DNA of 64,000 nucleotides, from contig JANNVX010000067.1 of the NCBI GenBank assembly GCA_031414595.1, positions 1-64,000 on the forward strand. The letters run 5' to 3'. Each line of letters begins with the position of its first letter. Within the stretch, counting starts at the first letter, position 1. The notes below the pieces were generated by a model. It did no database searches and had not been told where the DNA came from. It saw only the letters and a program-made list of their open reading frames with translations. Both the position numbers and the translations under genes were made by a program. Below, piece after piece: positions 3,520 to 60,510 of the stretch. The DNA comes from Deinococcales bacterium (lineage in GTDB: Bacteria; Deinococcota; Deinococci; Deinococcales; JAAFIG01).

Positions 3520-3561
3520 GCGGATTGTACAGTTCTGACATTTGTACGGTAAAGTAATGCC

Positions 3562-4371: not shown

Positions 4372-4438
4372 ATGACTGTTGTGTATATCAAATGAATGAC
4401 TATTGTGTATATCAAATGAATGACTATTGTGTACATCA
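4360..4438. repeat. 24-bp tandem repeat x3 (TATATCAAATGAATGACTRTTGTG)
   Basis: Units at 4360, 4384 and 4408 plus a partial at 4432; the first unit contains the last codons and stop of the upstream gene. Confidence 0.95.
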
Positions 4439-4486
4439 TGTAACTTGACTTTTATAGTATATCCAACGATACTTTTTGTTATCGTT

Positions 4487-6392: not shown

Positions 6393-6474
6393 AACTGCCT
6401 CTTGGCAGGCTCGAGTTTTGACACAAAGTAGTTTACACTTAAAAAAGTTCCTTGAGATTGAGAATAAGGTGAAC

Positions 6475-9595: not shown

Positions 9596-9850
9596 ATGAA
9601 TCAGCCTCATCAAAAAATTAGCATCAGTGTGCCAGTTAATTTGTTACGTTATGCTGAAAAATACCAAGCCCAACAGCAACTCTCGAGCCGCAGCGATGTT
9701 TTTAGTGCAGCTTTGATTGCGTTGCGTGAAAAAGAACTCGAGGAAAGTTACCGAGCGTGGACGGAGGAACAAGGTCATAATCCAGACCCACTTCTTGCCA
9801 TTGATAATACAGATGGACTGGAATTGAGTGATGGAAGCGAGTGGCTGTGA
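9596..9850 (+). CDS. Ribbon-helix-helix antitoxin (MazE-like partner)
   Basis: KISISVP...SRSDVFSAAL RHH pattern, acidic tail, GTGA overlap with the downstream toxin. Confidence 0.8.
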   Translation: MNQPHQKISISVPVNLLRYAEKYQAQQQLSSRSDVFSAALIALREKELEESYRAWTEEQGHNPDPLLAIDNTDGLELSDGSEWL

Positions 9851-10215
9851 GTCTCATTAGGCGTGGTGATATTTACTTTACTCACTTTGGAACGGCTCGA
9901 GAAGGCGAAGTAGGTTATTCTCATCCAAGTGTTGTTGTTAGTAATAACATTGCCAATGCCAATACAGATGTTTTGGTGGTTGTTCCAATCTCGAGTAGTA
10001 TCCAAAGAATTTTTAGGCATGATCTTTTATTGCCACTTGAACGAACTGGCTTAAATAAAGACAGCAAAGCCCAAGTTAATCTGATTCGTCATGTCAGTAC
10101 TGGTCGTTTTGCTAAACGACTTGGTTTCGTACCAGACGATTTAATGCTCGAGTTGGATGAACGCATTCTCGAGCATTTGGGTTTGCTTTATAAGTTAGGC
10201 GCAACACTTTCTTGA
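9847..10215 (+). CDS. mazF: PemK/MazF-family endoribonuclease toxin
   Basis: RRGDIY...GE...HPSVVVSNN...VVPISS...DSKAQ..IR motifs; start is GTG at 9841 or 9847. Confidence 0.85.
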
Positions 10216-19353: not shown

Positions 19354-19525
19354 GTTTTGCTGCCTCCGAATGGGTTTTTGGGTCAAACAATGCACCTCGA
19401 GCAGTCTCGAGGGAATTTAGATTGAGGTCTAGTTGACGAACAGGGGACAAATGGGGTCAAATTGAGTTTCCTGCATTTTGCCCCTTTACAGATGTTTGGG
19501 GTTTAATGCTTTTTCAAACATCCGA

Positions 19526-28837: not shown

Positions 28838-30808
28838 TCATCTTTTGGCTTTAGCGTTGGACATCGAACTGGCTTTGGCAGTGTACATCGAATGGTCAGC
28901 GATATTGGAAAGCTCATCGGTAGTGCTGCCATCCCTTGGGTAAATCGCCATGCCAATACTGGCAGAAACCTCGTGTTGGTGCGTCCCAATCACTACTTTG
29001 GTGGTCAGGCTTTTGGCAAGTTGTGCTGAAATCTGAGCTACTTCTTCGGGTTGTTCTAAATTCGGCAGAATTACTGCAAACTCGTCGCCGCCTAGCCTGG
29101 CAACCGTACTGGCAGCGCTGGTTTCGGCAATTAACTGGCGAGCGATATTTTTAAGCAGTTCGTCGCCCGTGGCATGACTAAAGTTATCATTGACAAACTT
29201 AAAATTATCAAGGTCAATGTAGAGTAACCCGACCGAACTTTTTTGTAGGTCAGCTTGGCGCATGGCGAGGGTTAAACGTTCTTGGTACAAAGCCCGATTT
29301 GCTAGGTTGGTCAGTGGGTCGTGGGTGGCACGGTACTCGAGTTGTTCAAGTAAGGTATTGCGGTCTATGGCAATCGCGCTCAGTTCGGTGGTGGTGTGCA
29401 GCACCCGAAAATTGTCTCTGGATGTACTGGGTAAATAGACCGTCACCACCCCAATGGCTTGATTAGACACCAAAATCGGTAAACTGCGGGTGGCGCGAAA
29501 ATCGTGTTTTAAGATCAATTCTTGTTCGTTATGATTGAAACGTGGGTCACTGATGCTTTGAAGATTTGACTCGAGTTGCCCCACCCAAGTAGCAAAAGCG
29601 GTTTCTTCAAGCGGACGTTGCAACCAAGTGCGGATACTGTTGGGTAAACCGTGGGTGGCAAGTAATTCAAGGTGTCCAGCCCGCAAAGCACTGATGGCAC
29701 AACCAGCCCGTTGAAATTGCGAAGTGGCAAGTTCACAAATTCGCGCCATCACTTCTTCAAGTTCGATATTTCGGGCAATCAACTCGAGAATCTGGTTGCG
29801 TTCACGCTCCAAACGCACCGAGCGTTTATGTTCGGTGATATTGACCATTAAGCCACGCACCCGCACACTGTCGTCTACTTGGGCAAAGGTAATGCGGTCT
29901 TGAATCCACATCAGTTCGCCTTGGTCGTCGTAAGCCCGAGCTTCGATTTCCAGTGGCTCGAGGGTTTTGGTGGCATGACGCAAACGCAAATTCATGGCTG
30001 ACCAGTCGTCGGGTTGGAAGACTTGCGTCCAAAGGTTTGATTCACGTAAGCCTAGAAAGCGCTCGCTCGAATAACCAAATAAACGTTCGGCTTGGCGGCT
30101 AATAAAGGTGCAATGTAGTCCGCCATCACGGTATTCACCTTCCCAGACCACCCCTTCTAAGGAATTGACCAGTTCTTGGTAAATTGTTTTTGATCGGCGC
30201 AATTCGGTTTCGGTTTGCTGACGATGCCGCAATTCGGCACGCAACTGGTCAAACAATTCGGCATTCTCGAGCAGAGGTGCAGCCGCCGCCGAAGCACTTT
30301 GAATAATATCAATTTCGTGTTCGTTAAATTCACGCACGGTGTACGAATCCAAACCCAGTGTCCCGACCACGCGCCGCCCAGCAATAATTGGCACAATCAA
30401 CATACTGGCGACTCCAAAGGCTTTGGCGATGTCCCGCGCTGCGCCCATCCGAGGGTCGTTTTGGGCATCCAGCACCGCTACTGGTTGCCGTCTTGACAAA
30501 ACCAATTGAGTAATCTCGTTGTTCTCGAGTGAAATCTGCGCCCCTAAGTTTCCAGTATTGCCCTCGCCATACTCAGAAATAATCGTCAGTGCCTCGCCAT
30601 CTTCGTTCAGCCGAGCAAAACCAGCGTGTTGCACTCCAACCACTTCGATTAACTCGGCACAAATCACGTTTAAGACCGTGACTGGCTCAAGCGGAGCGCC
30701 AGCCGTGGCAACAATGTGTTTTAGCATTGTGGCTTCGGTGAGACGTTTTTCTAACTCGAGTTTATTAAAACCCATTTGTGGAATTTGGTTACTTGGATTT
30801 TGGCTCAT
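28838..30808 (-). CDS. Diguanylate cyclase (GAF-PAS-GAF-GGDEF)
   Basis: HDPLTNLANR, DLDNFK and RLGGDEF motifs; N-terminal GAF and PAS (WIQDR) regions. Confidence 0.92.
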   Translation of the reverse strand: MSQNPSNQIPQMGFNKLELEKRLTEATMLKHIVATAGAPLEPVTVLNVICAELIEVVGVQHAGFARLNEDGEALTIISEYGEGNTGNLGAQISLENNEITQLVLSRRQPVAVLDAQNDPRMGAARDIAKAFGVASMLIVPIIAGRRVVGTLGLDSYTVREFNEHEIDIIQSASAAAAPLLENAELFDQLRAELRHRQQTETELRRSKTIYQELVNSLEGVVWEGEYRDGGLHCTFISRQAERLFGYSSERFLGLRESNLWTQVFQPDDWSAMNLRLRHATKTLEPLEIEARAYDDQGELMWIQDRITFAQVDDSVRVRGLMVNITEHKRSVRLERERNQILELIARNIELEEVMARICELATSQFQRAGCAISALRAGHLELLATHGLPNSIRTWLQRPLEETAFATWVGQLESNLQSISDPRFNHNEQELILKHDFRATRSLPILVSNQAIGVVTVYLPSTSRDNFRVLHTTTELSAIAIDRNTLLEQLEYRATHDPLTNLANRALYQERLTLAMRQADLQKSSVGLLYIDLDNFKFVNDNFSHATGDELLKNIARQLIAETSAASTVARLGGDEFAVILPNLEQPEEVAQISAQLAKSLTTKVVIGTHQHEVSASIGMAIYPRDGSTTDELSNIADHSMYTAKASSMSNAKAKR

Positions 30809-47483: not shown

Positions 47484-47723
47484 ATGATGTCAGTCAATAT
47501 GTTGGAAGCAAAAACCCAACTGTCTAAGTTGGTCGAACGTGCCTTAAACGGCGAAGAAGTGGTTATTGCCAAAGATGGCGAGCCGCAAGTTCGGCTTGTG
47601 CCAATTAAACAAAAGGTGCTAAGACCAGTGGGACTGTATTCATCGGTAGGATTAAGTCCAGAAAGCCTAAAAGAAAGTATTGCCCAGCTATCCGAAGAAG
47701 AGCTTAAGGCTTGGCATGGCTGA
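47484..47723 (+). CDS. Phd/YefM-family antitoxin
   Basis: VNMLEAKTQLSKLVERALNGEEVVIAKDGEP motif. Confidence 0.92.
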   Translation: MMSVNMLEAKTQLSKLVERALNGEEVVIAKDGEPQVRLVPIKQKVLRPVGLYSSVGLSPESLKESIAQLSEEELKAWHG

Positions 47724-48108
47724 GTCTGTTTTGATTGATTCACATGTGCTGCTGTGGTTCAATAATAAACCAGACGAACTCAGCCCTCGAGTTGTGACCT
47801 TGTTGCGTGACCCAAGCACAATTGTTTTTGTTTCGAGCATGACAGCCCATGAATTGGCGGTTAAGTATGCGAACGGTAAGTTACCAGAAGCAAGTGCTTT
47901 GGTGAATGATTTTCTGGGAATTTTAAGTCGCTACAATTTTCATGAATTGCCGTATTCGATTAGCGATGCCTTATGCGCCGCAAAACTTGAACCGTCCCAC
48001 AAAGACCCTTTTGATCGGGCTTTAAGCGCTCAGGCTTTAGAGCGAAATTATGCTTTGGTCAGCATAGACCAGATGCTTGACCAATTTGGAGTGCGTCGCA
48101 TCTGGTGA
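47716..48108 (+). CDS. vapC: VapC (PIN-domain) toxin
   Basis: LIDSHVLLW, E..K...GKL and HKDPFDR motifs; overlaps the antitoxin stop. Confidence 0.92.
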   Translation: MAESVLIDSHVLLWFNNKPDELSPRVVTLLRDPSTIVFVSSMTAHELAVKYANGKLPEASALVNDFLGILSRYNFHELPYSISDALCAAKLEPSHKDPFDRALSAQALERNYALVSIDQMLDQFGVRRIW

Positions 48109-48168: not shown

Positions 48169-49092
48169 ATGAGTCAAGGACTAAAAGTAGCTGTTACTGG
48201 CGCGACTGGTTATGTTGGGCATCACGTATTGCGCGAACTGCTCGAGCGTGGGCATAGCGTCACGGCACTCTCGAGAAGCGGCGCAAAATCCAGCACCGCC
48301 AGTGGAAAATCCCTAGCCACTTTTGAGAATGTCAAATACATCGGTGGCGATGTCTCGACGGCTCGTAACCTCGACACAGCCTTTGCTGGGGCGGATGTGG
48401 TGATTCATTTGGTTGGGATTATTAGCGAACATAAAGACCAGACTTTCCAGAATGTGCATGTCAACGGCACAAAAAACGTTCTCGAGGCAGCAAAAAAAGC
48501 GGGTGTCAAGCGTTACCTGCACATGAGTGCTTTGGGTGCGGCTGCCAACGCTGCCAGTGGCTACTCAAGTAGCAAATTTGCAGCAGAAGAGCTGGTGCGA
48601 GCCAGTGGTCTCGAGTATACGATTTTTCGTCCTAGCCTGATTTTTGGCGAAGGCGACGATTTCTTTGGACGGGTCTTAAAAAACCTTGTCTCGAGTGCGC
48701 CAATCGTGCCACAAATTGGCGATGGCAGTTTTCCATTCAGACCAGTCTGGGTGGGCGACGTGGCAAAATGTTTTGCCCAAGCGCTGGATATTCCCAGTAG
48801 TATCGGGCAAGTCTTTGATGTGGTGGGCAGTAAAGAATTTAGTTTTAAGGAACTGCTTAATCTCGAGATGAACGCCCTAGGAACTAAAAAACCCCTTGTT
48901 CCAGTACCGATTTTTTTAATGGATATTGGTGTGCCGCTCATGCAGATTTTGGGTTCGTTAGCACCGATTACGACCCATCAGTACGCGATGCTCAAAGCGG
49001 GGAACACCGCCGACCCAGCCCCAGTCAATGCAATGTTTAAGCTCGAGAACCGCAGTTTAGAGACCGAATTACCGAAATTACTCGGGAAGTAA
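48169..49092 (+). CDS. NAD(P)-binding protein, complex I NDUFA9-like atypical SDR
   Basis: TGATGYVG, HLVGII, HMSALGA, YSSSK, RPSLIFG and PVWVGDVA motifs. Confidence 0.9.
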   Translation: MSQGLKVAVTGATGYVGHHVLRELLERGHSVTALSRSGAKSSTASGKSLATFENVKYIGGDVSTARNLDTAFAGADVVIHLVGIISEHKDQTFQNVHVNGTKNVLEAAKKAGVKRYLHMSALGAAANAASGYSSSKFAAEELVRASGLEYTIFRPSLIFGEGDDFFGRVLKNLVSSAPIVPQIGDGSFPFRPVWVGDVAKCFAQALDIPSSIGQVFDVVGSKEFSFKELLNLEMNALGTKKPLVPVPIFLMDIGVPLMQILGSLAPITTHQYAMLKAGNTADPAPVNAMFKLENRSLETELPKLLGK

Positions 49093-52000
49093 AATAAATT
49101 CTTGCCATGAACTCGGTAGGCTTTCACCAATTTTTTGGTACTGCTCTTGTTGCACCTGATAAAAACTGTTCAGACTCGAGTCGAGACTGGCTTCAAGGGC
49201 TTGTACGTGCAGTCGCAGGGCGGGTCGCTCGAACGGGTTCATGTTTAATAAAATGCGACTGGCTCGAGTGGCTTCGGTTGGATTAATGGGCAAGCTTTGG
49301 GTGATGGCTCGGGTCAGGGCTTCAGATAGGGCTTCTTGGACACTTGGGTTAAGGCTTATTTCGTCTTCTAAGTACACGCCGCGCCAGATTGTGGTGTCCA
49401 GTGTTTCTAAGAAATCCTCGGCATCGGTACGAACGCCTAAACAATAACCAAGGGTGGTGTGTTGCACAATTTCACTGCCAAGGCTTTTGCGTAAACGATA
49501 AATCAGCTGCCGAAGAGCCGAAGCCGCTTGTTCTTCGTTTTCTTCGGGGTAGAGTGTGTCTATCATCTCGAGTTGAGTCACCATGACCCTGCCCATCAAC
49601 CGCGCCTCGAGCAGTAATGCCAGTAGTTCTCGGGCTTTTTTTAAGCGCTTAGAAATGGTTTGGGTAGCGTAGCGCATTTCGCCTAGCACCTCGAGTTTTT
49701 GAGGGTTGGTTTGAGTGGTTTGTTGTGACTGATTAAACATTTCTGGAAAGTAGCGTTTGGCAACATGAAGGGTAGAAATTGCCTCATCTCCCAATTCTTT
49801 TAATCGTCTAATCCGCAAAGCAGCCGCTTCTTTTTGCGAAAACAAATAATCAAATTCTAAAGCAAATCGTTCAAACGAAATACTTGTATCGGTATCTTCT
49901 AAGGTTTTCAGGGCTTGAATCATTTCTTGTTTTGATTCTTCTATAAAACCAAGTGCAAAACGAGTTCTTGCTCGAACCCACATGCCCTTAGCCAAGTCAC
50001 TTGTCAACTCGAGTTTTTGTGCTAATTCTATTTGTTCATCAATTAAAGTTAGTGCCACACTTGGGTCGCCATGAAGGGCTTCAATCCAAGCTATATCGGC
50101 TAAGTTACGGGCAAGTTGTGGTTTGCTGGTCAGTAATCTTTGGTAACGTAGGGCATCTTTGGTGTGTTTGCAAGCTAGAATTTCACCAAACGGCGGACTC
50201 CATTCCATGTACAAATAAGCCAGTTGTAAATGGACTGAAGTCAAGTACAACCAATCACCTGTGGCATGACTGAGTACATTTTGGGCTTCTAAGAGCAGCA
50301 ATTCAGCCCGTTCAAACTGCCCTAAGTAGGTGATGGAGCTTGCAATTGCCGCTTGTCGAATCGAATAACGAAAAGGGTCAGCTAAATCTCGCATCAGTTG
50401 CAAAGAAGTCTCGAGGTCATGCAAACCTTCTTGTTTTCGCCCTAAGTCCATACGAACCAAACCCCGATTAGAAATCAGCAATTCTTGTTCTATCCATAAG
50501 TTGCTAGATTCTTCAGGATGTTCTTGCAGTAAGTTTAGGGTTTGGGTAAATAAGGCTTCGGCTGCCGTAAATTGTCCTAGGATACGCAATCCAAGGGCTT
50601 TAACATTGAATAAACGCAAACGGGCTGAAAGTTCAACTGGGCGGCTTAAGGTTTGGTCTATCAGTTCAAATGCCTCTACTTGTCTGGACAGTTGAATCAA
50701 TGACATGGCAATACTCCAATTGACTACAGGATTTAATTGTTGTTGCAAATCTGGGTGTTGTTGCCAAATCGAAATAACCTTCTGGTAATCACCACGAATC
50801 GCTAGGAATTGCACAAATGCGGCTAGCCAAGCAACATCAAATTCTTTTTCAGGAGCAGATTTAATCAGTATTTGTTCGGCTTCATCACTGCGTCCTAAGA
50901 GTTGCAAAGCTAAACACCAACCCAAAATAAACTCTGGATTATCTGGCTCGAGACGAAAAGCAATTTCATACAATCGGGCTGATTCGGTTCGGTCAAAGGG
51001 CTTTAAGAGTTCTGCGGCTTGAAACGCCATACTACTTTTTTCTTCTAATGAAGTCAGTTGTACCGCATACGCAAAAGCGCGTCCGGCAAAATGTTTATTT
51101 CCTTTGGCGGCAGTCAGACGTGCCACTTCTAACCATACGTCAAGGGTTTGTTTTGGCTCGAGTTGTGCCGTTTCCACCAGATACTCAATGAGTTCTGGTG
51201 CAAATAAAAGGGTTGGAGCAATTAATTCTCGGGCAATGCTGATTTTTTCTTGCAACCACATTTTTGAACGCAATACTTCGGGATACAGCGGATGCACAAA
51301 TTGATTAGCCGACCAGATACCTGTGCTGAACAATTCAAGATGGTAGACATTTTGCATTTGCTCTGACCAAGTGGCAAAAACATGGTCTCTTAGGTTTGGT
51401 TGATTGGGCAACAAGGCTAAACTAAGCAGCACTTGACGTAAAATACTTGGCGCTGCTATTTGCTGGCTAATATCTTCTAAACGCTCAATAATAATCGCTT
51501 CTAAATCTTTGGGAATTGTCTGTGTTTGTATTGGTTCTTGCCAAAACCATTGTTTCTGCACTTGCCATAAAAAACCTTGGCGCAGGGCGTGTTGAAAAAA
51601 CTCGAGGGTAAAAAGTGGATTACCTAAACTGCGTTTATAAATCCAATTTATTGCATCTGGTGGTAAGGGATAAACGGCGGCGTTATTGAGTAAAGCTGTT
51701 GCTGCTTTTTGGTCAAGGGCTTGCAAAGAAAATTCTTGAAATGCAGCCGATAATGGTAAACGGCTGGTGATAATTAAACCAATGCCCTTACTTTTACCCA
51801 GCATTTGTGCCACTGTAACCCAAAGTGCCAGTTGCGCTGGGTTGGCTTCATGGGCATCCTCGAGATGCACCAGCACAGGCGACAGGGCTGTTAAATAAGT
51901 CAATACGGCTTGGGCTATAGATTTTTCGGATAGATTTTGCTGTTCTTTGAGTTGCTTAAAAACTTGTTCTGCCCAAACAGGCAAAGGTTTTGTGGCTACC

Positions 52001-52239
52001 GGTAATCGGGTGTGTAACCAATGCCAAGGTTCTGAAATTGGAATTAACACTCGAGTACAAGGGATGACACTTAGCACTTGCTCGACGGTGTGGGTTTTGC
52101 CCATGCCCGCATCTGCCACAATTGCAATGGCGGCACTGCGAAAACCCGAGGCGATTCCGTTCAGGCGCTCAAGCAACCGCCCAGCTTCGGCAGTCAGTTG
52201 CTTTTTTGAGGTGGTAGGGCTGCTTAAGTGTGTTGGCAT
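49078..52239 (-). CDS. STAND ATPase - TPR - C-terminal SARP/wHTH transcriptional activator (paralogue 1)
   Basis: Walker A ADAGMGKT, Walker B VHLEDAH, ITSR, GNPLF and FVHPLY motifs; TPR-like helices; C-terminal LEVLG...ELLALLL...DTLYP...ALRQLIYRLRKSLG...GY.L. Likely start 52239 (6 nt after TACCCT). Confidence 0.85.
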   Translation of the reverse strand: MPTHLSSPTTSKKQLTAEAGRLLERLNGIASGFRSAAIAIVADAGMGKTHTVEQVLSVIPCTRVLIPISEPWHWLHTRLPVATKPLPVWAEQVFKQLKEQQNLSEKSIAQAVLTYLTALSPVLVHLEDAHEANPAQLALWVTVAQMLGKSKGIGLIITSRLPLSAAFQEFSLQALDQKAATALLNNAAVYPLPPDAINWIYKRSLGNPLFTLEFFQHALRQGFLWQVQKQWFWQEPIQTQTIPKDLEAIIIERLEDISQQIAAPSILRQVLLSLALLPNQPNLRDHVFATWSEQMQNVYHLELFSTGIWSANQFVHPLYPEVLRSKMWLQEKISIARELIAPTLLFAPELIEYLVETAQLEPKQTLDVWLEVARLTAAKGNKHFAGRAFAYAVQLTSLEEKSSMAFQAAELLKPFDRTESARLYEIAFRLEPDNPEFILGWCLALQLLGRSDEAEQILIKSAPEKEFDVAWLAAFVQFLAIRGDYQKVISIWQQHPDLQQQLNPVVNWSIAMSLIQLSRQVEAFELIDQTLSRPVELSARLRLFNVKALGLRILGQFTAAEALFTQTLNLLQEHPEESSNLWIEQELLISNRGLVRMDLGRKQEGLHDLETSLQLMRDLADPFRYSIRQAAIASSITYLGQFERAELLLLEAQNVLSHATGDWLYLTSVHLQLAYLYMEWSPPFGEILACKHTKDALRYQRLLTSKPQLARNLADIAWIEALHGDPSVALTLIDEQIELAQKLELTSDLAKGMWVRARTRFALGFIEESKQEMIQALKTLEDTDTSISFERFALEFDYLFSQKEAAALRIRRLKELGDEAISTLHVAKRYFPEMFNQSQQTTQTNPQKLEVLGEMRYATQTISKRLKKARELLALLLEARLMGRVMVTQLEMIDTLYPEENEEQAASALRQLIYRLRKSLGSEIVQHTTLGYCLGVRTDAEDFLETLDTTIWRGVYLEDEISLNPSVQEALSEALTRAITQSLPINPTEATRASRILLNMNPFERPALRLHVQALEASLDSSLNSFYQVQQEQYQKIGESLPSSWQEFILLPE

Positions 52240-52281
52240 GTTCACAGGGTACTCCAAATTACATTTTGGGATTTTCTCGAG

Positions 52282-52319
52282 TCGGTCTCGGAGTGCAAAA
52301 TTTTGCACTCCGAGACCGA
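52282..52319. repeat. Perfect 38-bp palindrome
   Basis: TCGGTCTCGGAGTGCAAAA|TTTTGCACTCCGAGACCGA. Confidence 0.95.
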
Positions 52320-52328
52320 TAAGCCAAA

Positions 52329-54509
52329 TTACGGTTTGAACAGAGCCACAAACGAAGTGGTGTTATTTAGTGCAAAGCCATTGCCAAACGCCATTGCACT
52401 GCTGTCTGGTAAGCCAACCACACCCGTAAAAATTGAGTCAAAGCTGAGGCTGTTACTTGGATTGGTATAACCGAGTAACACTTTACCGCCCACGCCAAAG
52501 CTGCTGTCTAAACTGCCATCTTGGTTTAAGCGCACGGCTGCGAAGTCGTTGGTGTTGGCTGCACCGACCATCATAATTTTGCCATTGGCAAGCACAGTAA
52601 TGGCTCGAGGAACGTGCAGGTTGGCATTAAAGGTCACATCTATGCGCCCATCGGTATCAAAACTGGTGTCGAGGCTGCCAGTATCGGTTAGACGAACCAC
52701 ACTGTACAATTCGGTGGTGACATCACGAATCAGCATTAACAGTCTGCCTTGAGCGTCCAGAGTAACGCGGCTACGGCTATTAATCGAACTTAAATTCAGA
52801 ACAGCATTGTTGATTGCTTGGCTTTGATAAGCTGCGTCTACTGCGCCAGTTGGGAGAATACGATTCACAGTGATGGTTGAACTGGCTCCTGAATCGGAGA
52901 TGACAAGGAAGCGTCCTTGGGAATCGGTGAAAGCGATAGCTGTTTCATTTGAAAACAGACCAGGAATCGCAATTGTTTTGCGTCCGTCACCATCAAAATC
53001 AGGGTCTAAGTTGCCACCGGGAGTTAAGCGAATCAATTCGTTTTGGGTGATAAATAAGAAACGACCTAAGTCAACTTGGGCAAAACTGAGCAGATCAGAT
53101 CCAATGTTGGATGCAAACAGTTGGGTTGCACCATTTGTACCGAAACTCGAGTCCAAAGAACCATTTGGGTTCAAACGGGTAATTGCTGTATCACTAAGGA
53201 GCAAAATTTTATTGTCGGCTTGGAGTACAAATTGCACTGGAGTGACAAAACCCAGTCCAGCAGGAGGGTTAAAGGTGCTATCAAGCGTGGCATCGGCATT
53301 AAGCCTTGCAATCCCCAACGCTCCTACCGTAACCAGTATTTTCCCATCTGGTTGCCGAAGACTAATCCGACCATTGATGCTCGGTGCTGTCTTAAATCCT
53401 GCCAATGGCAAATTGCTAAAACTCGAGTCTAGGGCGTTACCGCCAATGTTTGTGGCTTTGGGTTGCTCGAACCGACTCAGTACGTTGGTGCTGACCAAAA
53501 TGGTTTGTATAATCCCGCCGCCTGTACCTTTAATTGTAAAGTTTTGAGGTCCAGAAGGGGTGTTCAAACCAGCCACCATTGACATATTGGTATTTGTACC
53601 GTTCTCGACTCGCATATCTTGTGGCACACTTTGGGCGCTAATTACCACAGGCGCAGTAAATCCAGCTTTGCGTTCGACATTAACGGTAAAATTGCTGCGG
53701 ACTTCTTGCAGAATTGGGTCTTCGATAACGGTGGTGCTGAGCTTAAAGCCTTGGGTCGTGACAGGCAAAACCGTAAGTTGCACCACGGTACTTCTGGTCA
53801 GGTTATTGGCGACACCAACCATTCTCATGGCATAGACTCCGGGCAGGGTGTTGTTGGCAAGGCTTAATGTCACCAATGAGGTGTTCTGATTGGGTGGATT
53901 GACCGTTGGGACTGGATTTTTATTAAAAACCGCACTGACCCCAAGCGGTAAATTCTCGAGGGTAAGCTGGACATTGCCGCTAAATGTGGGGTCTAGTTCT
54001 TTAACGTTAATGCCAAATTTGGCGGTAAAACCGGGTTCGGCACTAAACACATTGGGGGTTGCGGTCAGGGTGTAGACCGAACCTGTTATAGCTGGAACAA
54101 CGACATTGATATTGGTACTGACGGTGATGGTTGCGGCTTGGGGGTTTAGGCTTTTTCCGGGTATGCCATCTATCGCAACACCAAGCACTTTTAAGGGGTA
54201 TGTACCGGGAGCAACATTTTTACCGATTTTCAGGCGCACACCACAATCGCCGTTGCTCGAGTCGCGGGTCCATTCTTGTTCAAAACCAGCCGGTAAATTC
54301 TCGAAGGTCATTTGTACAAGGTTGCTAAAGCCAGCCTCACGCTCGAGCGCCACAAAACTGGTGGCATCACCACCAATTGGAATCTCGAGGCTTATTTCGG
54401 CGGGTTTGAGCTTAAAACTTGGAATAACAACAGGTGGTGGCGCAGTGTTACACGCCATGATGGTCATACCTAAAGCGAGGAGCAGACCGATTGTTTTGCT
54501 GTGTTTCAT
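52329..54509 (-). CDS. Lipoprotein with Ig-like repeats and delta-60 (beta-propeller) repeats
   Basis: Lipobox IMAC; repeated F.L...GF...V.L...NLP.G modules; multiple RL..(D/N)GSLD.SF(G/D) repeats; AAGGAG RBS. Confidence 0.85.
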   Translation of the reverse strand: MKHSKTIGLLLALGMTIMACNTAPPPVVIPSFKLKPAEISLEIPIGGDATSFVALEREAGFSNLVQMTFENLPAGFEQEWTRDSSNGDCGVRLKIGKNVAPGTYPLKVLGVAIDGIPGKSLNPQAATITVSTNINVVVPAITGSVYTLTATPNVFSAEPGFTAKFGINVKELDPTFSGNVQLTLENLPLGVSAVFNKNPVPTVNPPNQNTSLVTLSLANNTLPGVYAMRMVGVANNLTRSTVVQLTVLPVTTQGFKLSTTVIEDPILQEVRSNFTVNVERKAGFTAPVVISAQSVPQDMRVENGTNTNMSMVAGLNTPSGPQNFTIKGTGGGIIQTILVSTNVLSRFEQPKATNIGGNALDSSFSNLPLAGFKTAPSINGRISLRQPDGKILVTVGALGIARLNADATLDSTFNPPAGLGFVTPVQFVLQADNKILLLSDTAITRLNPNGSLDSSFGTNGATQLFASNIGSDLLSFAQVDLGRFLFITQNELIRLTPGGNLDPDFDGDGRKTIAIPGLFSNETAIAFTDSQGRFLVISDSGASSTITVNRILPTGAVDAAYQSQAINNAVLNLSSINSRSRVTLDAQGRLLMLIRDVTTELYSVVRLTDTGSLDTSFDTDGRIDVTFNANLHVPRAITVLANGKIMMVGAANTNDFAAVRLNQDGSLDSSFGVGGKVLLGYTNPSNSLSFDSIFTGVVGLPDSSAMAFGNGFALNNTTSFVALFKP

Positions 54510-54595
54510 AATTTTCTCCTTATTGCTAAAAACGCGAGGGTTTAAGAACGAAGTACCTGTTTTGTATCCGAACCTCCTGTGTAACGAACTTCTAA

Positions 54596-54628
54596 AGGCT
54601 AAATGGACTGTGGTAACGAGGCTGTAAC
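54596..54628 (-). promoter_or_regulatory. Direct-repeat activator box + -10 (copy 1)
   Basis: Sense strand GTTACAGCCTCGTTACC (54628-54612), 10 nt, then TAGCCT. Confidence 0.8.
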
Positions 54629-54635
54629 ATCAAAA

Positions 54636-55415
54636 CTAGAATGGGAAACTTTTAGGGTCTTTTGGATTGACAATTTTGAGAACCAACCCCAAATCAGTCA
54701 TTGTCTTTTTGTCCTCGAGCCGAGGTGCTTTTTGTACCCCCACTTGGTTAATCAGGGCAGCTTGCTGCTTGCCGTTGGGTAGTACAATCCAACCAGCCAC
54801 GGCTTTTTTTGCACTCTTGCTTTCGGCTCGGTAAAAACCAGCTTGGTCTCGAGCCAATGGAACAGCAAAGGCATACGTTCCACTTGGTAATTCAAGGCTG
54901 CCGAGTGCGTTTTGCAAATTTATTTTGGCAATTAGCCGCGCTCCGTTTTTAGACTGCAACTCGAGTGAATTGTCTAAACCGAGTGCGCCTTTGAACCATT
55001 CAGCAGTCTTTTGCCCATCACAGATGTATGCCAGTACACGCTGCTGTTGCAAGGCAATGGCAATAAAAACTGGTGATTGTGGAATTTTTCCAACATAGAC
55101 TGCCTCGAGTTGGGGTGAGGCTGGCTTGAACCACAACACGGCTGCAATCAATAAAACCGCCAAAAGGCTAAAGACACGTACATCTAATTTTTTCTGGACT
55201 GGCGTTTTGGTGATTGGTTGTGGCTCGAGTGGCAGACCGCATTGGGCGCAATTTCGGGCATAGGGCGACATGATTGGCGCTTGGCAGACTTGGCACTGCT
55301 CGAGCATTTCTGTGCCATCGTTAATACAATATCTTTCCCCGCTTTCTATCGGTACGGCTCGAGCGCAGCGCGGACAGATGCGGTATTGGGGCTGGCTGGT
55401 CACGAGTTGGCTCAT
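54636..55415 (-). CDS. Double zinc-ribbon + TM + extracytoplasmic domain protein
   Basis: CPRC...CIND...CQVC...CAQC followed by a TM helix (VFSLLAVLLIAAVLW); likely leaderless start at 55415. Confidence 0.75.
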   Translation of the reverse strand: MSQLVTSQPQYRICPRCARAVPIESGERYCINDGTEMLEQCQVCQAPIMSPYARNCAQCGLPLEPQPITKTPVQKKLDVRVFSLLAVLLIAAVLWFKPASPQLEAVYVGKIPQSPVFIAIALQQQRVLAYICDGQKTAEWFKGALGLDNSLELQSKNGARLIAKINLQNALGSLELPSGTYAFAVPLARDQAGFYRAESKSAKKAVAGWIVLPNGKQQAALINQVGVQKAPRLEDKKTMTDLGLVLKIVNPKDPKSFPF

Positions 55416-55422
55416 GGGGTTT

Positions 55423-55455
55423 AGGTTACGGGCAGGGTGGTAACGAGCCTGTAAC
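55423..55455 (-). promoter_or_regulatory. Direct-repeat activator box + -10 (copy 2)
   Basis: Sense strand GTTACAGGCTCGTTACC (55455-55439), 10 nt, TAACCT, 7 nt, ATG. Confidence 0.8.
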
Positions 55456-55491
55456 GTCTTTGTTTTTGATTTGTGGCTTAGAATTCTCGGT

Positions 55492-58449
55492 GTGTCCGAA
55501 TCCGTAGAAACCTTAAAGCAGTGCTTACAAGATTTGCCTTTGGGAAATCCCAGTTGTGCTTTGGCGTTGACAGCCGAAGCTGGCGCAGGCAAGTCTTTTG
55601 CGGTGGCAGCCTTAATGCGTGAGTTACCGTATGGTTCAATGGTTGTCCATGCCGAAATTAGCCTTAGAGATTTACCAAAGATGCTGCCTTCTCGAGCAAC
55701 ACAAAAAATACCCGTACCAGATGGCGTGGTGACATCGTTGCTGAATCACTTAAATCTGCTGAGTCCGTTTGTTTTATGGGTCGAAGATTTTCATCAAGCC
55801 AGTCCCGAACAGCAACAAATCTGGTTGGCACTCTCGAGCGCGATTATTCAAACCAAAGGGCTGGCATTGTTATTTACAACAAGGGTGGCAATGACTGCGC
55901 CTGTACAGACCTTTTTTCTCGAGCCACTTTCACCGATTCAATTAAAGTCTTTACTGGAAACCGAAGCAGGCTCGATTATCCCCGAAGCCGCGATTATCTG
56001 GATTGAAAAGCAAACCCAAGGCAATCCGCTTTTTTCCTTGGAGTATTTTAAGTGGTTAGCACGGCTGGGTTTTTTACGCAGTGATGGTCAATTTTGGCGT
56101 TGGCGTGAACCAGAGCATCGGGTTTTGCCATCAAAGTTAGACGCGCTGATAGAACAAGCCCTGATGCCCGCTTTGGTTTCTGAGCAGCAGGCGCATGTCT
56201 TGCTGGCGGCGGCATTGCTGGGTTCAAAAGTGGATTTATCGGTTTTGTCGCAAGTCACACAAAAAAGCCAAACCGAACTTAAAGAAATTTTTTTGAGACT
56301 CGAGCGATTTGGGGTTTTTAGACGTGGACAATTTGCCCATTCTCTGTACAAAGAGGTACTGCTGAACAATCCAAACATCAAAAATCGTGAATTGATAATA
56401 AAGCAAGTGCTGACTTTTTTAGCCAAGCATAATCCAATAGAAGCCACCCAAATGATGCGCTATGCCAAGTTAAACCCGACCGAACAAGGCTATTATTTTG
56501 AACAAGCCATTACCTTTGCCCTCAACTTGCCAGACCCTGTGTTAGCGGCTCGGTTGCGCCGCAAAAGCATCGAATTTGTGGATCGTTTAGCCCAAGTTCC
56601 CTTGTTGCTCGAGTCAGCCTTGTGGTTGCAACCGTATCAGCTTTCCGAAGCCTTAGAGATCACCGATTTACTGTTATCACTCGAGCCGCTCAACACGGCT
56701 AATTTGCGTCTGCGGGTGATTTTATTGGCAAAACTAGGGCGCACAACCGAGGCACAGGGGATGCTACACAGCTTGCCTTTGAAGGGGCTTAACGACTTAA
56801 TAGAACTCGAGGTTCTGGTGTTGTACCGAGGCTGCCAGTATACAAAACTGCTTGAACTCTGGCGGGTTGGCTTAGCTGCACAAGTTATTTTGCCCGCACC
56901 TTTGGCTCGAGCCGTGGCAATTGCGTTACTTTATGATTCAGAATTTGAAAAAGCCCAGCAAATTATGAGCAGAACCTCGAGCCTAACAGGTTTTGACCGA
57001 TTGGACATCTTGTTTGCCGAATTGTATCTTCCATTTACAAAGCATGACTTTGTAACCACAATCAGGGCTTGCACCGATTTTTTAGGGCAACTCGAGCCGT
57101 ACCGCAATGCCACCTTTGAATGGATTGACTTGTTGTGCGGCACATTGCATTTACGAGCTTTGGCGTACAGCGCCCTTGGTCAACCGCTCGCTGCAATTGC
57201 GGACACCACAAAAAATTTGGGCTACCTTAAACAACTTGGTCTTTTGGTTATCTATGCCCAAAGAAAGGCAGAATTGGCGTTGTACCAACTCGAGGCTGGC
57301 GAAAGCGGTTTGGCAGCCACCAACTTATTTGAAGCCAGTGAAACTTTGGATTACTCGAGCGAGCCAGTCCAGAATTGCTTTTATCATCAAACTCGAGCCA
57401 TCTATTACTTGGGCTTAGAAGATCAAAAAGCCTTGCAGATTGCCCGTTTAGCACTTCGTCATGCCCAAGAAACCGAAGAACCAAATCACATCAATCAGGC
57501 AAAACAGACCTTGGCACTGATTGAAGCCAGCCTTGGCTCTGGCGCAAAAGCCTTGGATTTAGTCTCCCAACTCGAGCCGCCACCAAGACTGACCAAAGCC
57601 ATTGCTTTGAAGCGCTTAGGGCAACCTACCGAGGCAATAGAACTACTCGAGCAAGCAGGCAACGAACCGACTGGACGTATGCAGCTTGAATTGGCTCATC
57701 TTAAAAATGACTTTGCTTTTGCCCAGAAACTCTTATTGCAATTTAATCAAAACCACCAAGGGCAACTGATTAAACTGCACCAAAAATACTTTCCTCATTC
57801 CAGCCGCCCTAAAAAACCTGCGCTGCGCGTACTGGGCGATATTTACTGGCACGATGCGCCCTTGGGTGAACGTGGACGCAAAGCCCTAGAATTATTGGTC
57901 TACTTACTCGAGGCTCGGGTAGAAAAACAGCCAGTCGTGACTTTAGAAGAATTATTCAGGGTGCTTTATCCAAATCATCAGCCCGCCGAAGCCAAAGCCG
58001 CCCTAAAACAATTGGTTTACCGAATGCGGAGTTTTCTGGGTGCAGAAACGATTTTGCACCTTGGTGATGGCTATGCTTTAGGTGCGTTTGAAACTGACCT
58101 CGAGCTATTTTTAGAACATCCACAACCCGAATTACTTTTAGGCAATTACATCAATGACCTTGGAACAGACCACCCCTCGAGCTTGCGCCAAGTTTTAACA
58201 GAAAAAATCCAGACCTTACTATCCGAAATGATGCAGCACAACCACCCTGAAACAGTCCGAATTGCCCGAATTTTACTCGAGATGAACAGCCCAGACCAAA
58301 AAAATCTAACCCTGATTCTTAAAGCTGTTCAACACGCCAAAGACCCTGTAGCAGCGATTCAAATTTATGCCCATGCCAAACAAAAACTCGAGGAAATGGG
58401 CGAGGATTTACCCGACTCTTGGCAAAAATACTTACAAGCCCAAGGCTAA
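55492..58449 (+). CDS. STAND ATPase - TPR - C-terminal SARP/wHTH transcriptional activator (paralogue 2)
   Basis: AEAGAGKS, LWVEDFH, FTTR, GNPLF and FAHSLY motifs; C-terminal LRVLG...ELLVYLLEAR...LYP...ALKQLVYRMRSFLG...GYALG. Likely GTG start 55492 (7 nt after TAGAAT). Confidence 0.85.
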   Translation: MSESVETLKQCLQDLPLGNPSCALALTAEAGAGKSFAVAALMRELPYGSMVVHAEISLRDLPKMLPSRATQKIPVPDGVVTSLLNHLNLLSPFVLWVEDFHQASPEQQQIWLALSSAIIQTKGLALLFTTRVAMTAPVQTFFLEPLSPIQLKSLLETEAGSIIPEAAIIWIEKQTQGNPLFSLEYFKWLARLGFLRSDGQFWRWREPEHRVLPSKLDALIEQALMPALVSEQQAHVLLAAALLGSKVDLSVLSQVTQKSQTELKEIFLRLERFGVFRRGQFAHSLYKEVLLNNPNIKNRELIIKQVLTFLAKHNPIEATQMMRYAKLNPTEQGYYFEQAITFALNLPDPVLAARLRRKSIEFVDRLAQVPLLLESALWLQPYQLSEALEITDLLLSLEPLNTANLRLRVILLAKLGRTTEAQGMLHSLPLKGLNDLIELEVLVLYRGCQYTKLLELWRVGLAAQVILPAPLARAVAIALLYDSEFEKAQQIMSRTSSLTGFDRLDILFAELYLPFTKHDFVTTIRACTDFLGQLEPYRNATFEWIDLLCGTLHLRALAYSALGQPLAAIADTTKNLGYLKQLGLLVIYAQRKAELALYQLEAGESGLAATNLFEASETLDYSSEPVQNCFYHQTRAIYYLGLEDQKALQIARLALRHAQETEEPNHINQAKQTLALIEASLGSGAKALDLVSQLEPPPRLTKAIALKRLGQPTEAIELLEQAGNEPTGRMQLELAHLKNDFAFAQKLLLQFNQNHQGQLIKLHQKYFPHSSRPKKPALRVLGDIYWHDAPLGERGRKALELLVYLLEARVEKQPVVTLEELFRVLYPNHQPAEAKAALKQLVYRMRSFLGAETILHLGDGYALGAFETDLELFLEHPQPELLLGNYINDLGTDHPSSLRQVLTEKIQTLLSEMMQHNHPETVRIARILLEMNSPDQKNLTLILKAVQHAKDPVAAIQIYAHAKQKLEEMGEDLPDSWQKYLQAQG

Positions 58450-58451
58450 AC

Positions 58452-58484
58452 GTTACAGCCTCGTTACCAGTCCTAGCGCAAGCT
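58452..58484 (+). promoter_or_regulatory. Direct-repeat activator box + -10 (copy 3)
   Basis: GTTACAGCCTCGTTACC (58452-58468), 10 nt, then CAAGCT. Confidence 0.8.
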
Positions 58485-58508
58485 GTTGGAGAAAGGAAAG
58501 GAGCGAGT

Positions 58509-58637
58509 ATGAAAAAACGGTTTTGGCTTCTGGCATTGCTGGTTGCAGCACTAATCACCGCTTGTCCAAGTCCTCCACCAGCCGTGGCTGATGGCACTTG
58601 GGGAGAATCAAATTGGGGACAGGCTAACTGGAGGTAA
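58509..58637 (+). CDS. 42-aa mini-lipoprotein with Trp repeats
   Basis: AAGGAG RBS; MKKRFWLLALLVAALITA-C lipobox; mature part PSPPPAVADGTWGESNWGQANWR. Confidence 0.75.
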   Translation: MKKRFWLLALLVAALITACPSPPPAVADGTWGESNWGQANWR

Positions 58638-58639
58638 TT

Positions 58640-59533
58640 ATGAAAAACATTGTAAAGAACTGGGCAATTGGATTTGGGATAGGAATTTCTGGACTTGGCG
58701 TAGCTGCCGTGACACTGCCACACACTTTTTTACCAGGAACACCGATTAAATCGGCGGACATGAACGCCCAATTTTTAGAAATCAGCAAAGCCATTAACAG
58801 CCTCGAGACCCAACTCAATACAGTCAAAGGTTCGGTTACGACCCTCGAGACAGGTAAGCAAAAACGAGTTACTGGAACGTGTACCATCGGCTCGAGTATC
58901 CGCACCATAGATGCCGAAGGTAATGTCGAATGCGAACTGGACGATATTGGCGGCAATGGCGGTAGTTTCTCGGCAGGCGCGGGTTTGAATTTTACAAATA
59001 ATGTTTTTTCGGTAGCCGATGCTGGAATTACCACTTCTAAATTAGCCGACAGTAGTGTCAATGCCGCTAAAATTGCCGATGAACCAGCCGTTGCCCAAAG
59101 CATAGACACCGATGGTCACGGCACAATGGCACAAGGGCAAATTATTATTCTCGAGCAAGTCACGGTTCAAGCTCCAGCCAATGGTTTTGTACTGGTGATT
59201 GGTTCAACCCAAGTCGGTATTGTTGCCACCACCAATTCATTCCCAGCCGCCGCTTTTGGAGTTTCTAAATCACCAACCAGCATGGATAACGAACAAGTAA
59301 AGTTTGTATCTGCCCCACCAGTCGCTGCCAATGCCAACAATAATTCGGTTTTCCAAACGGTCTCGAATCAAAAAATCTTTGCGGTCAATGCAGGGGCAAA
59401 CACCTTTTATTTACTAGGAAGCCGTCAAGTGAGTACCCCTGTCAGCAGTAAAAAAGAAACTTTGTCGGCTGTTTTTATCCCCTCGAGTATGGGAACAGTT
59501 GAAGAAATTGACCTCGGCACGCCACCGATTTAA
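58640..59533 (+). CDS. Secreted fibre/adhesin-like protein
   Basis: GGAGG RBS, signal-like N-terminus, TF.PGTPI.S..MN..F motif, coiled coil, C..GSSIR.I...G.V.C module, and IT..KLAD..V...KIAD repeats. Confidence 0.7.
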   Translation: MKNIVKNWAIGFGIGISGLGVAAVTLPHTFLPGTPIKSADMNAQFLEISKAINSLETQLNTVKGSVTTLETGKQKRVTGTCTIGSSIRTIDAEGNVECELDDIGGNGGSFSAGAGLNFTNNVFSVADAGITTSKLADSSVNAAKIADEPAVAQSIDTDGHGTMAQGQIIILEQVTVQAPANGFVLVIGSTQVGIVATTNSFPAAAFGVSKSPTSMDNEQVKFVSAPPVAANANNNSVFQTVSNQKIFAVNAGANTFYLLGSRQVSTPVSSKKETLSAVFIPSSMGTVEEIDLGTPPI

Positions 59534-59748: not shown

Positions 59749-60510
59749 ATGAAACGGTACTTATTCCCACTTGGCTTCTTGCTGATAATTGGTTGTGCGC
59801 CCGCCAACAGCACCACTAGCGCCCCAACAGTGATAAAAGGTTCAGGTGACATTACAAGTACCATCGAACAATACCGTCAATTGCTTGGCGGTATAGATAA
59901 CAACGGAGAACCAGGCTCGAGAAGCACAGGATACCGAGAAATAAACTGGGATAGCTTGCCCAACGAACTGTCAGCTCCCAATTTTTACACCCCAGATTTC
60001 TTTAATGCCTCCACAGCCCCTCGAGCCAGAGGCGCAGTTCTCAGTACCCCAGGAAAAGGTTTAATGGTTAGCGCCAGCAATAACAATCCGACTGGCACAT
60101 TGCCAAGATTTGGAAACATCAACCCAACCTATGTCAATAGTTTTAAGACCTTTAGCAGCGAACGCTTATTTTCACCAATTGGTAGTAACATTGCCGAAAT
60201 TCGTTTTTATGTACCAGGAACAAATACCCCAGCCGCCGTGCAAGGTTTTGGGGCGGTTTACACTGATGTGGACACTGACCATACTGCCTTTGAGTATTTT
60301 GATATTAAAGGTAATCTACTCGGTTCTTTTGCAACGCCAATTGCCGACAATGGACTATCGTTTCTAGGTGTAGTTTTTAAGCAAGCAATTGTTCATAAAG
60401 TACGAATTCAGTATGGTACTGCCGCATTAGGAGCGGATGACAGTCTAAGCAATGATGTTGCAGTTATGGATAATTTTGTCTACGGCGAACCAAAAGCCAT
60501 TCAGCCATAA
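59749..60510 (+). CDS. Hypothetical lipoprotein
   Basis: AGGAGG RBS, lipobox IIGC; REINWD, GFGAVYTDVD and MDNFVYGEP motifs. Confidence 0.8.
   Translation: MKRYLFPLGFLLIIGCAPANSTTSAPTVIKGSGDITSTIEQYRQLLGGIDNNGEPGSRSTGYREINWDSLPNELSAPNFYTPDFFNASTAPRARGAVLSTPGKGLMVSASNNNPTGTLPRFGNINPTYVNSFKTFSSERLFSPIGSNIAEIRFYVPGTNTPAAVQGFGAVYTDVDTDHTAFEYFDIKGNLLGSFATPIADNGLSFLGVVFKQAIVHKVRIQYGTAALGADDSLSNDVAVMDNFVYGEPKAIQP

Follow-up and report, generated by a model that had tools for sequence, protein, structure and literature searches.

Activators of the SARP family are sorted into small, medium, large, and SARP-LAL classes and, as far as the accessible part of the published classification goes, carry the SARP domain at the N terminus in all of them (PMC10972967). 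According to the available portion of a second account, SARP sites have repeats at 11-bp spacing and a -10 element 8 bp from the 3' repeat, the AfsR box is centered at -29.5, and two SARP protomers lie side by side and offer sigma region 4 an alternative docking point (PMC10936776). Here, we describe a locus in which this arrangement of modules appears to be turned around. It lies in a stretch of 64,000 nucleotides from a Deinococcales bacterium (GenBank assembly GCA_031414595.1, contig JANNVX010000067.1, positions 1 to 64,000), called the window throughout, which was covered as a whole (64 kb) in the box counts and motif scans. According to the open reading frames (ORFs) and their translations, positions 49078 to 59533 hold six genes: two for large paralogous putative regulators, STAND1 and STAND2, one for a zinc-ribbon membrane protein, and three cargo genes, for a delta-60 lipoprotein, a mini-lipoprotein, and a fiber-like protein.

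On our best reading, which draws on analogy with described activators, STAND1 and STAND2 would be ligand-gated activators of the NLR/STAND type that have the parts of AfsR in permuted order and drive private surface-protein operons. The pair and its module most likely represent a widespread but unstudied gene switch. In the full-text literature searched, with most subscription journals outside its scope, neither a C-terminal SARP on a STAND protein nor this module is described, and the locus keeps the status of candidate undescribed system that a preliminary description, made from the DNA letters, had given it.

Two putative regulators with permuted AfsR modules

STAND1 (49078 to 52239, minus strand; 1053 aa in its database form, P0001, with an alternative GTG start at 52308) and STAND2 (55471 to 58449, plus strand; 992 aa from a TTG start) have the same domain order, a NOD ATPase, a TPR array, and a C-terminal SARP module made of a winged helix-turn-helix (wHTH) and a short BTAD. 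They had been introduced as two paralogous proteins of ca. 1000 aa, and BLASTP bears this out, with 26% identity over the full length (E 3e-63). By region, identity amounts to 28% in the NOD, 34% in the SARP module, and 19% in the TPRs, which are the most divergent part.

The motifs claimed at the outset (P-loop, hhhhED, GNPLF, and FxHxLY) can all be read in both translations. The P-loop is ADAGMGKT in STAND1 and AEAGAGKS in STAND2, the Walker B motif is VHLED and LWVED, respectively, GNPLF is present in both, and F-x-H-x-L-Y takes the forms FVHPLY and FAHSLY. Alignment of 20 members of the family showed GxGK, ED, TSR, GNPL, and F..H to be invariant in all of them. The Pfam matches to AAA_22/AAA_16 and to TPRs were all under the cutoffs. 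An AlphaFold2 (AF2) model of STAND1 (predicted local distance difference test [pLDDT] 84.9) had as its top match in the PDB the entry 6mfv, "STAND protein with TPR" (E 5e-12), followed at rank 2 by Avs3 (E 1.8e-8). The core motifs, together with a modeled NOD followed by a repeat sensor fold, would place STAND1 and its family among the STAND NTPases.

To model the C-terminal module, the last 220 residues of STAND1 were folded with 61 homologues. The result had a pLDDT of 95.4, and its six PDB matches at E<=1e-3 were all to AfsR (8k60, 8hvr) or EmbR (2ff4, 2fez), over ca. 240 columns that cover both the winged helix and the BTAD. A profile of the C-terminal domain of the family, compared with the PDB, also gave AfsR (6.1e-10) and EmbR (3.4e-5), with a weak second stretch over the BTAD, and positions 19 to 126 of the NCBIfam AfsR model (NF053617) matched residues 860 to 968 of STAND1 (E 1.7e-11). 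The module, which occupies the last ca. 215 residues of STAND1 and STAND2, is therefore modeled as an OmpR-type winged helix plus BTAD, the composition of a SARP. No GerE match was found in the STAND proteins with Pfam, and neither Pfam nor the fold search found a nuclease or other toxic domain at the C terminus. The TPR array and the C-terminal SARP-type wHTH with a short BTAD-like tail, first suggested from the letters of the DNA, are thus backed by the AF2 models and by the fold and profile matches to AfsR and EmbR.

The order NOD-TPR-wHTH-BTAD is the reverse of that of AfsR, and the models agree with the earlier statement that the DNA-binding module sits at the opposite end. An N-terminal SARP, which marks the SARP family, was found neither in STAND1 and STAND2 nor in any of the 150 representatives listed.

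Distribution of the family and a recurring gene module

To place the locus among its relatives, we scanned one genome per species and kept the best 80 of 150 confirmed relatives, which gave 79 loci (numbered with the prefix L) from 36 assemblies, with up to 8 loci per assembly. The record titles of 78 of the 79 loci belong to Deinococcota (Deinococcales, Deinococcaceae, Trueperaceae, Meiothermus, Calidithermus, or "Deinococcota bacterium"), and the remaining one reads "uncultured bacterium." Culturable carriers of the family include Calidithermus roseus (L004, L009, and L063), Meiothermus taiwanensis (L012), and Deinococcus oregonensis (L013 and L036). Run against 1.84 billion representatives, the C-terminal profile had 319 matches at E<=1e-30 and 666 at E<=1e-10. 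The domain was located at the C-terminal end in 150 of the 150 representatives listed, and full-length forms measured ca. 1010 to 1100 aa.

The NOD-TPR part of the family is homologous to that of a conventional N-terminal-SARP protein from some of the genomes that carry it (hhalign probability 97%, E 1e-10, 482 columns), which indicates that the family has the AfsR parts in permuted order; a GNPL[FY]xLE motif is common to the permuted family and the N-terminal-SARP proteins. Conventional N-terminal SARP-BTAD-AAA_16 proteins of ca. 950 aa were also observed within a few kilobases of permuted regulators in 4 of the 79 loci (L040:1-2871, minus strand; L019; L023; and L024), so that both domain orders coexist in the same genomes.

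Clustering of all ORFs of the loci gave a recurring order: regulator, box (see below), small double-zinc-ribbon gene, one or more large lipoprotein genes, and often a fiber-like gene. Among the ORF clusters, no other DNA-binding family was conserved in the module. The neighborhoods of the homologues, which the preliminary description had named as a check, show the arrangement to be conserved and expanded in Deinococcota. Of its "twin" arrangement, the presence of a pair holds in the window and recurs in 8 of the 79 loci, where two family genes lie side by side (L001, L005, L011, L022, L023, L024, L049, and L055), but twinning does not define the system, most loci having one regulator and then the box. 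L001 holds the closest genomic relative of STAND1 (44%); it was rejected as an instance of the same gene order, with an acetate-kinase-like gene and other ORFs between its regulators. In two other paired loci, one member (L005:2724-6086 and L049:1533-4874, both on the minus strand) is encoded divergently from a standard regulator, its C terminus giving TPR matches and no SARP alignment; these members may be SARP-less paralogues.

The zinc-ribbon protein of the window (54636 to 55415, minus strand; 259 aa) consists of a cytoplasmic double zinc ribbon at ca. residues 10 to 64 (Pfam DZR, PF12773, 2.8e-5), one membrane helix, and an extracytoplasmic domain. It had been presented as one target among several, a view that falls short: of all companion genes in the family, this one is the best conserved. 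Queried with the window protein, tblastn gave matches in 43 of the 79 loci, mostly directly downstream of the regulator and on the same strand. The corresponding ORF cluster has 38 members, the family proteins being ca. 70 to 90 aa long. In the alignment of the core (alignment A4), 14 columns were invariant, including 7 Cys, a conservation far better than that of the regulators, and across the phylum the core is 38 to 58% identical to the window copy. A total of 202 database relatives were named only "zinc ribbon domain-containing protein," and the named organisms were all Deinococcota.

In the window protein, this core is fused to a membrane helix and an outer C-terminal domain; the outer domain is found by itself, as a lipoprotein encoded next to regulators, in L010:11682-12266 and L046:11356-12045 (both on the minus strand), and in most loci the zinc ribbon is a 70- to 90-aa protein without a membrane helix. 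When longer versions of the small zinc-ribbon protein, fused to other parts, were looked for, none scored, and a protein atlas search with the window protein gave no usable match. A three-chain complex prediction with the STAND1 NOD (residues 1 to 350), the SARP module, and the zinc-ribbon domain had a score of 0.00, which, in a design outside the calibration of the tool, is evidence neither way.

A predicted promoter box shared within the locus and across the family

The 17-bp box GTTACAG[C/G]CTCGTTACC occurs exactly three times in the window, always inside the locus, with exact matches at 54612 to 54628 (minus strand), 55439 to 55455 (minus strand), and 58452 to 58468 (plus strand). Allowing up to three mismatches added only one further match in the window, at 27608, and none of 100 shuffles reached four matches (mean 0.25). 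All three copies are oriented alike, each toward its downstream gene (delta-60 lipoprotein, zinc-ribbon protein, and mini-lipoprotein, respectively), in full agreement with the claim that the three target promoters share one box.

In the box, TTAC[A/C] is repeated directly at a period of 11 bp (TTACA-N6-TTACC), and a -10-like hexamer follows in each case. In the predicted promoter of the delta-60/STAND1 operon (54596 to 54628, minus strand), TTACA lies at 54627 to 54623, TTACC at 54616 to 54612, and the hexamer, tagcct, at 54601 to 54596. That of the zinc-ribbon gene (55423 to 55455, minus strand) has the repeats at 55454 to 55450 and 55443 to 55439 and taacct at 55428 to 55423, and that of the mini-lipoprotein/fiber operon (58452 to 58484, plus strand) has them at 58453 to 58457 and 58464 to 58468, with caagct at 58479 to 58484. 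The ATG of the zinc-ribbon gene comes 7 nt after its hexamer, a spacing that makes a leaderless transcript probable. Only 2 nt separate the STAND2 stop from the next box, an arrangement typical of the family. A simple scan for sigma-70 promoters and terminators found no more sites than in shuffles and missed the box promoters. A fourth full box-plus-hexamer match, at 29227 on the minus strand (TTACT-N6-TGACC...), falls inside a GAF-PAS-GGDEF gene (28838 to 30808) and was taken as chance.

Across the related loci, the box can be generalized to TxACC-N6-TxACC-N11-A-N3-T. When both strands of 1.08 Mb were searched, the strict pattern T[GAT]ACC-N6-T[GAT]ACC turned up 52 times; in 28 cases, the site had the orientation of a regulator whose stop codon lay no more than 400 bp upstream. 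Among the 59 regulators with enough downstream DNA, 26 were followed by a strict box and 33 by one that satisfies the relaxed pattern. An A at +27 and a T at +31, positions absent from the search pattern, were each present in 38 of 39 sites. The A/T pair accompanied 60 of 123 relaxed half-pattern hits; when 23 other offsets were put to the same test, the numbers ran from 0 to 12. Module positions hold 56 of the 60 hits that have the pair, against 22 of the 63 that lack it. Of the 56, 37 come right behind the stop codon of a regulator, 9 lie farther inside the same operon region, and 10 are divergent and upstream, an arrangement also seen in the window.

In the -10 hexamer of sigma-70 promoters, the two strongest positions are an A and, four bases on, a T. 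We took positions 26 to 31, of the form cAnncT, as the putative -10 and a point ca. 7 nt later as the putative start, a numbering that puts the repeat cores at -38 to -34 and -27 to -23. The cores would then lie 21 and 10 bp from the -10, so that neither can act as a normal -35, and zinc-ribbon genes mostly begin 12 to 18 nt downstream of the predicted start of transcription. From one repeat to the next, the distance is 11 bp, and the -10-like hexamer starts 10 bp beyond the TxACC core, or 8 bp beyond a heptamer unit. The promoter geometry predicted from the alignment matches that published for SARPs and the AfsR site, and the direct repeats of 11-bp period expected near -35 in the preliminary description were found in the -35/spacer region, both in the window and in the family alignment. 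A reading of the box as the site of an extracytoplasmic function (ECF) sigma factor was dropped on the spacings.

Two to three copies of one box variant precede successive cargo genes in the window and in L007, L040, L049, and L053. All six regulators with TTACC-type boxes, both window proteins included, have a wHTH with K[A/G]xE and YR[LM]R, a combination found in none of the 33 regulators with TGACC, TAACC, or TCACC boxes. This correspondence between box and helix is consistent with specific recognition. In a quick tree of the C-terminal domains, from which two rows with nonaligning C termini were left out, the TTACC-type regulators grouped at the base and apart from the other 50, which formed a branch with 86% support, and STAND1 and STAND2 formed a pair at 83% support.

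Proposed mechanism and alternative explanations

By analogy with the described SARPs, we think it probable that the regulators act on the boxes and so activate these promoters; anything said about the signal or the function of the cargo is held with much lower confidence. In the mechanism proposed, a cytoplasmic ligand would bind the TPR array and release an ADP-locked state, as in AfsR and MalT, the NOD would change its nucleotide state, and two SARP modules would come to lie side by side on the two 11-bp repeats. These would cover ca. -38 to -23 in each of the three promoters, which show a -10-like hexamer and no -35 hexamer, and the bound modules would bring in RNA polymerase. The three promoters would drive the zinc-ribbon protein, the delta-60 lipoprotein with STAND1, and the mini-lipoprotein with the fiber-like protein. 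Sensing of the signal by the TPRs is suggested by the same analogy and by their being the most divergent part of the two proteins.

STAND1 follows the delta-60 gene on the same strand after 89 nt (20 nt if the GTG start is used), and neither a box nor an obvious terminator was found in the gap. Being so close behind, STAND1 is probably cotranscribed with the delta-60 gene from its box promoter and, with neither element between, would be self-induced, in a positive feedback. STAND1 and STAND2 have the box type and the recognition-helix signature in common and differ most in their TPRs; probably, the two paralogues feed two different signals into one promoter set. The domain folds, the box, the promoter geometry, and the conservation of the module support this reading, and from them and by analogy we infer binding, activation, a ligand, and feedback.

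Several points weigh on the other side. The match of STAND1 to NF053617 is partial, with 42.8 bits against an equivalog cutoff of 1430, Trans_reg_C scored 18 to 21 bits against a cutoff of 26.2, and the curated models recognized a BTAD in 13 and a Trans_reg_C in 3 of the 61 C-terminal domains. No box was found within 400 bp downstream of 26 of the 59 regulators, even by the relaxed pattern, and the promoter of STAND2 itself was not located. The -10 assignment and the putative transcription starts derive from conservation, and binding and activation of the box promoters are proposed by analogy, the whole argument being built on sequences and models. As the TTACC-type regulators group in the tree, the box-helix correspondence may be a single evolutionary event. 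Finally, the conserved zinc-ribbon protein could be a DNA-binding factor itself.

This last point belongs to a first alternative, an unlikely one, in which the box promoters are real but are read by another factor, either the small zinc-ribbon protein or a dedicated sigma factor, with the STAND-SARP proteins acting elsewhere or modulating. Zinc ribbons can bind nucleic acids, and this one, as the most conserved companion (43 of 79 loci, 14 invariant columns), is the only conserved candidate. However, boxes also follow regulators in loci where no zinc-ribbon gene was seen (e.g., L009, L026, L030, L034, L039, L045, and L060), an 11-bp tandem repeat is typical of OmpR/SARP wHTH dimers, and the box type tracks the recognition helix of the regulators. 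A sigma factor on its own fits poorly with half-sites 10 or 21 bp from the -10 and no -35 spacing.

Alternatively, the STAND-SARP proteins might bind the boxes and repress, blocking RNA polymerase until a ligand releases them. The sites, at ca. -38 to -23, overlap the core promoter as those of many repressors do, but the absence of a -35 hexamer at the proper spacing is a mark of activator-dependent promoters, the BTAD activation domain is retained, and the SARPs described in the accessible parts of two accounts activate from this position (PMC10936776, PMC10972967), which leaves repression quite unlikely.

It is highly improbable that the locus is an antiviral STAND (Avs-like) defense whose TPRs sense a phage protein and whose C-terminal domain is a DNA-targeting effector, given that none of its six proteins matched a PADLOC model at E<=0.01, the C terminus is a SARP without a nuclease or other toxic domain, boxes with promoter geometry before the neighboring genes indicate gene regulation, and the window is ordinary chromosome, even though the full model resembles Avs3 in the NOD-TPR part (rank 2, E 1.8e-8), the family is expanded with variable sensors, and the neighbors resemble phage tail fibers.

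The reading of STAND1 and STAND2 as ligand-gated activators can be extended, in a form that we hold to be rather unlikely, to a phylum-wide transcription-coupled NLR system. Each paralogous sensor would read a different intracellular cue (an invader protein or a peptide) and, via its own box variant, induce a cassette of its own, made up of secreted proteases, propeller and Ig lipoproteins, and phage-like fibers, that remodels or arms the cell surface; the strictly conserved small zinc-ribbon protein, whose gene would lead the operon in every case, would act as a required partner with feedback on the switch, and pairs like STAND1 and STAND2 would be sensors converging on one promoter set.

If the regulators act as we propose, transcription control of the SARP and NLR types would reach beyond the antibiotic clusters of actinomycetes, permuted and expanded across Deinococcota. 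The module would bring with it a testable regulatory code of box, spacing, and -10, by which one might predict regulons from the sequences of little-studied and often uncultured lineages and define cargo operons (secreted proteases, propeller and Ig lipoproteins, and fiber-like proteins). It would also provide a natural set of sensor/output pairs for the coupling of a STAND switch to RNA polymerase with the DNA-binding module at the other end.

Cargo genes and genomic setting

The delta-60 lipoprotein (52329 to 54509, minus strand; 726 aa) has a signal peptide, a lipobox (...MTIMAC), and C-terminal delta-60/DUF5122 beta-propeller repeats (TIGR02608, 8.1e-41, above the cutoff; DUF5122, PF17164, 3.4e-24). 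It had been called an Ig/delta-60 lipoprotein; TIGR02608 upholds the second half of that name, and the "Ig" label of the N-terminal half, which had no Pfam match, was not confirmed. Among the related loci, it was found in L002 only. Large lipoproteins as such form an ORF cluster present in 38 loci, and the five tested with Pfam carry subtilase, C39-like peptidase, PKD, or Ig-like domains.

The mini-lipoprotein (58509 to 58637, plus strand; 42 aa) begins with MKKRFWLLALLVAALITAC..., in which the lipobox was read from the sequence. It is followed by the fiber-like protein (58640 to 59533, plus strand; 297 aa), whose N terminus bears a membrane anchor or signal and which matched the tail fiber protein family phrog_28766 (E 2e-4). 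The N-terminal part of the fiber-like protein recurs in five further loci besides L002, and the fiber-like cluster counts 14 ORFs in 13 sources (12 loci and the window). Of three relatives tested, two contain PF13884, an intramolecular chaperone known from tail fibers and endosialidases, and match phage tail-fiber PHROGs at 2e-11 and 5e-10. Translations and Pfam, NCBIfam, and PHROG matches agree with the description of the target genes as encoding exported or fiber-like proteins; the "adhesin" role attributed to them is a guess.

Behind the fiber gene, after a gap of 215 nt and without a box of its own, lies a gene for a 253-aa lipoprotein (59749 to 60510, plus strand), whose membership in the locus is uncertain. 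Pfam, NCBIfam, PHROG, and PADLOC gave no match for it, and among the related loci it matched in L002 only. L002, a contig of a Deinococcales metagenome-assembled genome (MAG), carries the same locus, with proteins 93 to 100% identical and the mini-lipoprotein region conserved at the DNA level. Its STAND2 orthologue (L002:3521-6505, plus strand) is broken into ORFs at 3521 to 5722 and 5747 to 6505, either by disruption or by an assembly error.

The rest of the window is ordinary chromosome, with uvrC, dxs, ribonucleotide reductase, Clp ATPase, tmk, and mutL, and Rfam (gathering threshold) and a tRNA scan gave no matches in the window as a whole. A PIN-domain gene (47680 to 48108, plus strand), ca. 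1 kb from the 3' end of STAND1, and a MazF/PemK-type toxin gene (9841 to 10215, plus strand) are probably parts of toxin-antitoxin modules. The ribonucleotide reductase gene (15052 to 19395, minus strand; 1447 aa) contains an intein with a LAGLIDADG homing-endonuclease domain. The palindrome CTCGAG is present 333 times in the 64 kb, versus 7.65 ± 2.9 in shuffles, in coding and noncoding DNA, and falls in the Leu-Glu frame at 9 of 12 sites in STAND1 and 13 of 20 in STAND2. Its density was 2 to 9.5 per kb in most of the related loci of Deinococcales MAGs, Meiothermus, Calidithermus, and Trueperaceae and 0 to 0.9 per kb in loci of the genus Deinococcus proper. A literature search returned no account of this excess.

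Relationship to described regulators and defense systems

With the antiviral STANDs (Avs, bNACHT), the window proteins share the NOD-TPR architecture, the similarity to the Avs3 fold, and the presence of variable sensors in multiple copies. They differ in having no match to a defense model and in their predicted output, a transcription-factor domain with cognate promoters. The COG3947 response regulators (receiver plus SARP), such as Deide_19260 of Deinococcus deserti, are alike in carrying the SARP C-terminal to the input domain and in being present in Deinococcus. Their input is, however, a phospho-receiver of ca. 120 aa instead of a STAND ATPase with TPRs, and the accessible part of the account of this family reports no conserved gene neighborhood (PMC3564903).

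MalT, the LAL-type regulators, and GutR resemble STAND1 and STAND2 in the order of their parts: ATPase switch, helical-repeat sensor, and C-terminal DNA-binding domain. With MalT and the LAL-type regulators, the window proteins would also share the one-component logic of ligand-gated activation proposed here, and the top structural match of STAND1, 6mfv, is what we take to be a MalT-like STAND-TPR protein. The difference is in the DNA-binding domain, modeled as an OmpR/SARP wHTH plus BTAD in the window proteins and not as the LuxR/GerE HTH of that group.

AfsR and the other "large" SARPs of Streptomyces (SARP-NOD-TPR) have the same three modules and the SARP fold, and the NOD-TPR part of the permuted family is homologous to that of proteins of the AfsR order in its own genomes. 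The predicted target, too, would be alike, with two 11-bp direct repeats over the -35/spacer region. The invariant His of the family, in F-x-H, stands at the place of the F/Y-H-D latch of AfsR as given in the accessible part of a preprint (bioRxiv 10.64898/2026.09.02.748808), and the two may be equivalent; in that preprint, AfsR became auto-active when this His was replaced. Unlike AfsR, the window proteins have the SARP module at the C terminus and a shorter BTAD, and their family belongs to Deinococcota and not to Actinomycetota, with many paralogues per genome. Its putative targets are genes for secreted and surface proteins, together with the zinc-ribbon protein, in place of antibiotic clusters.

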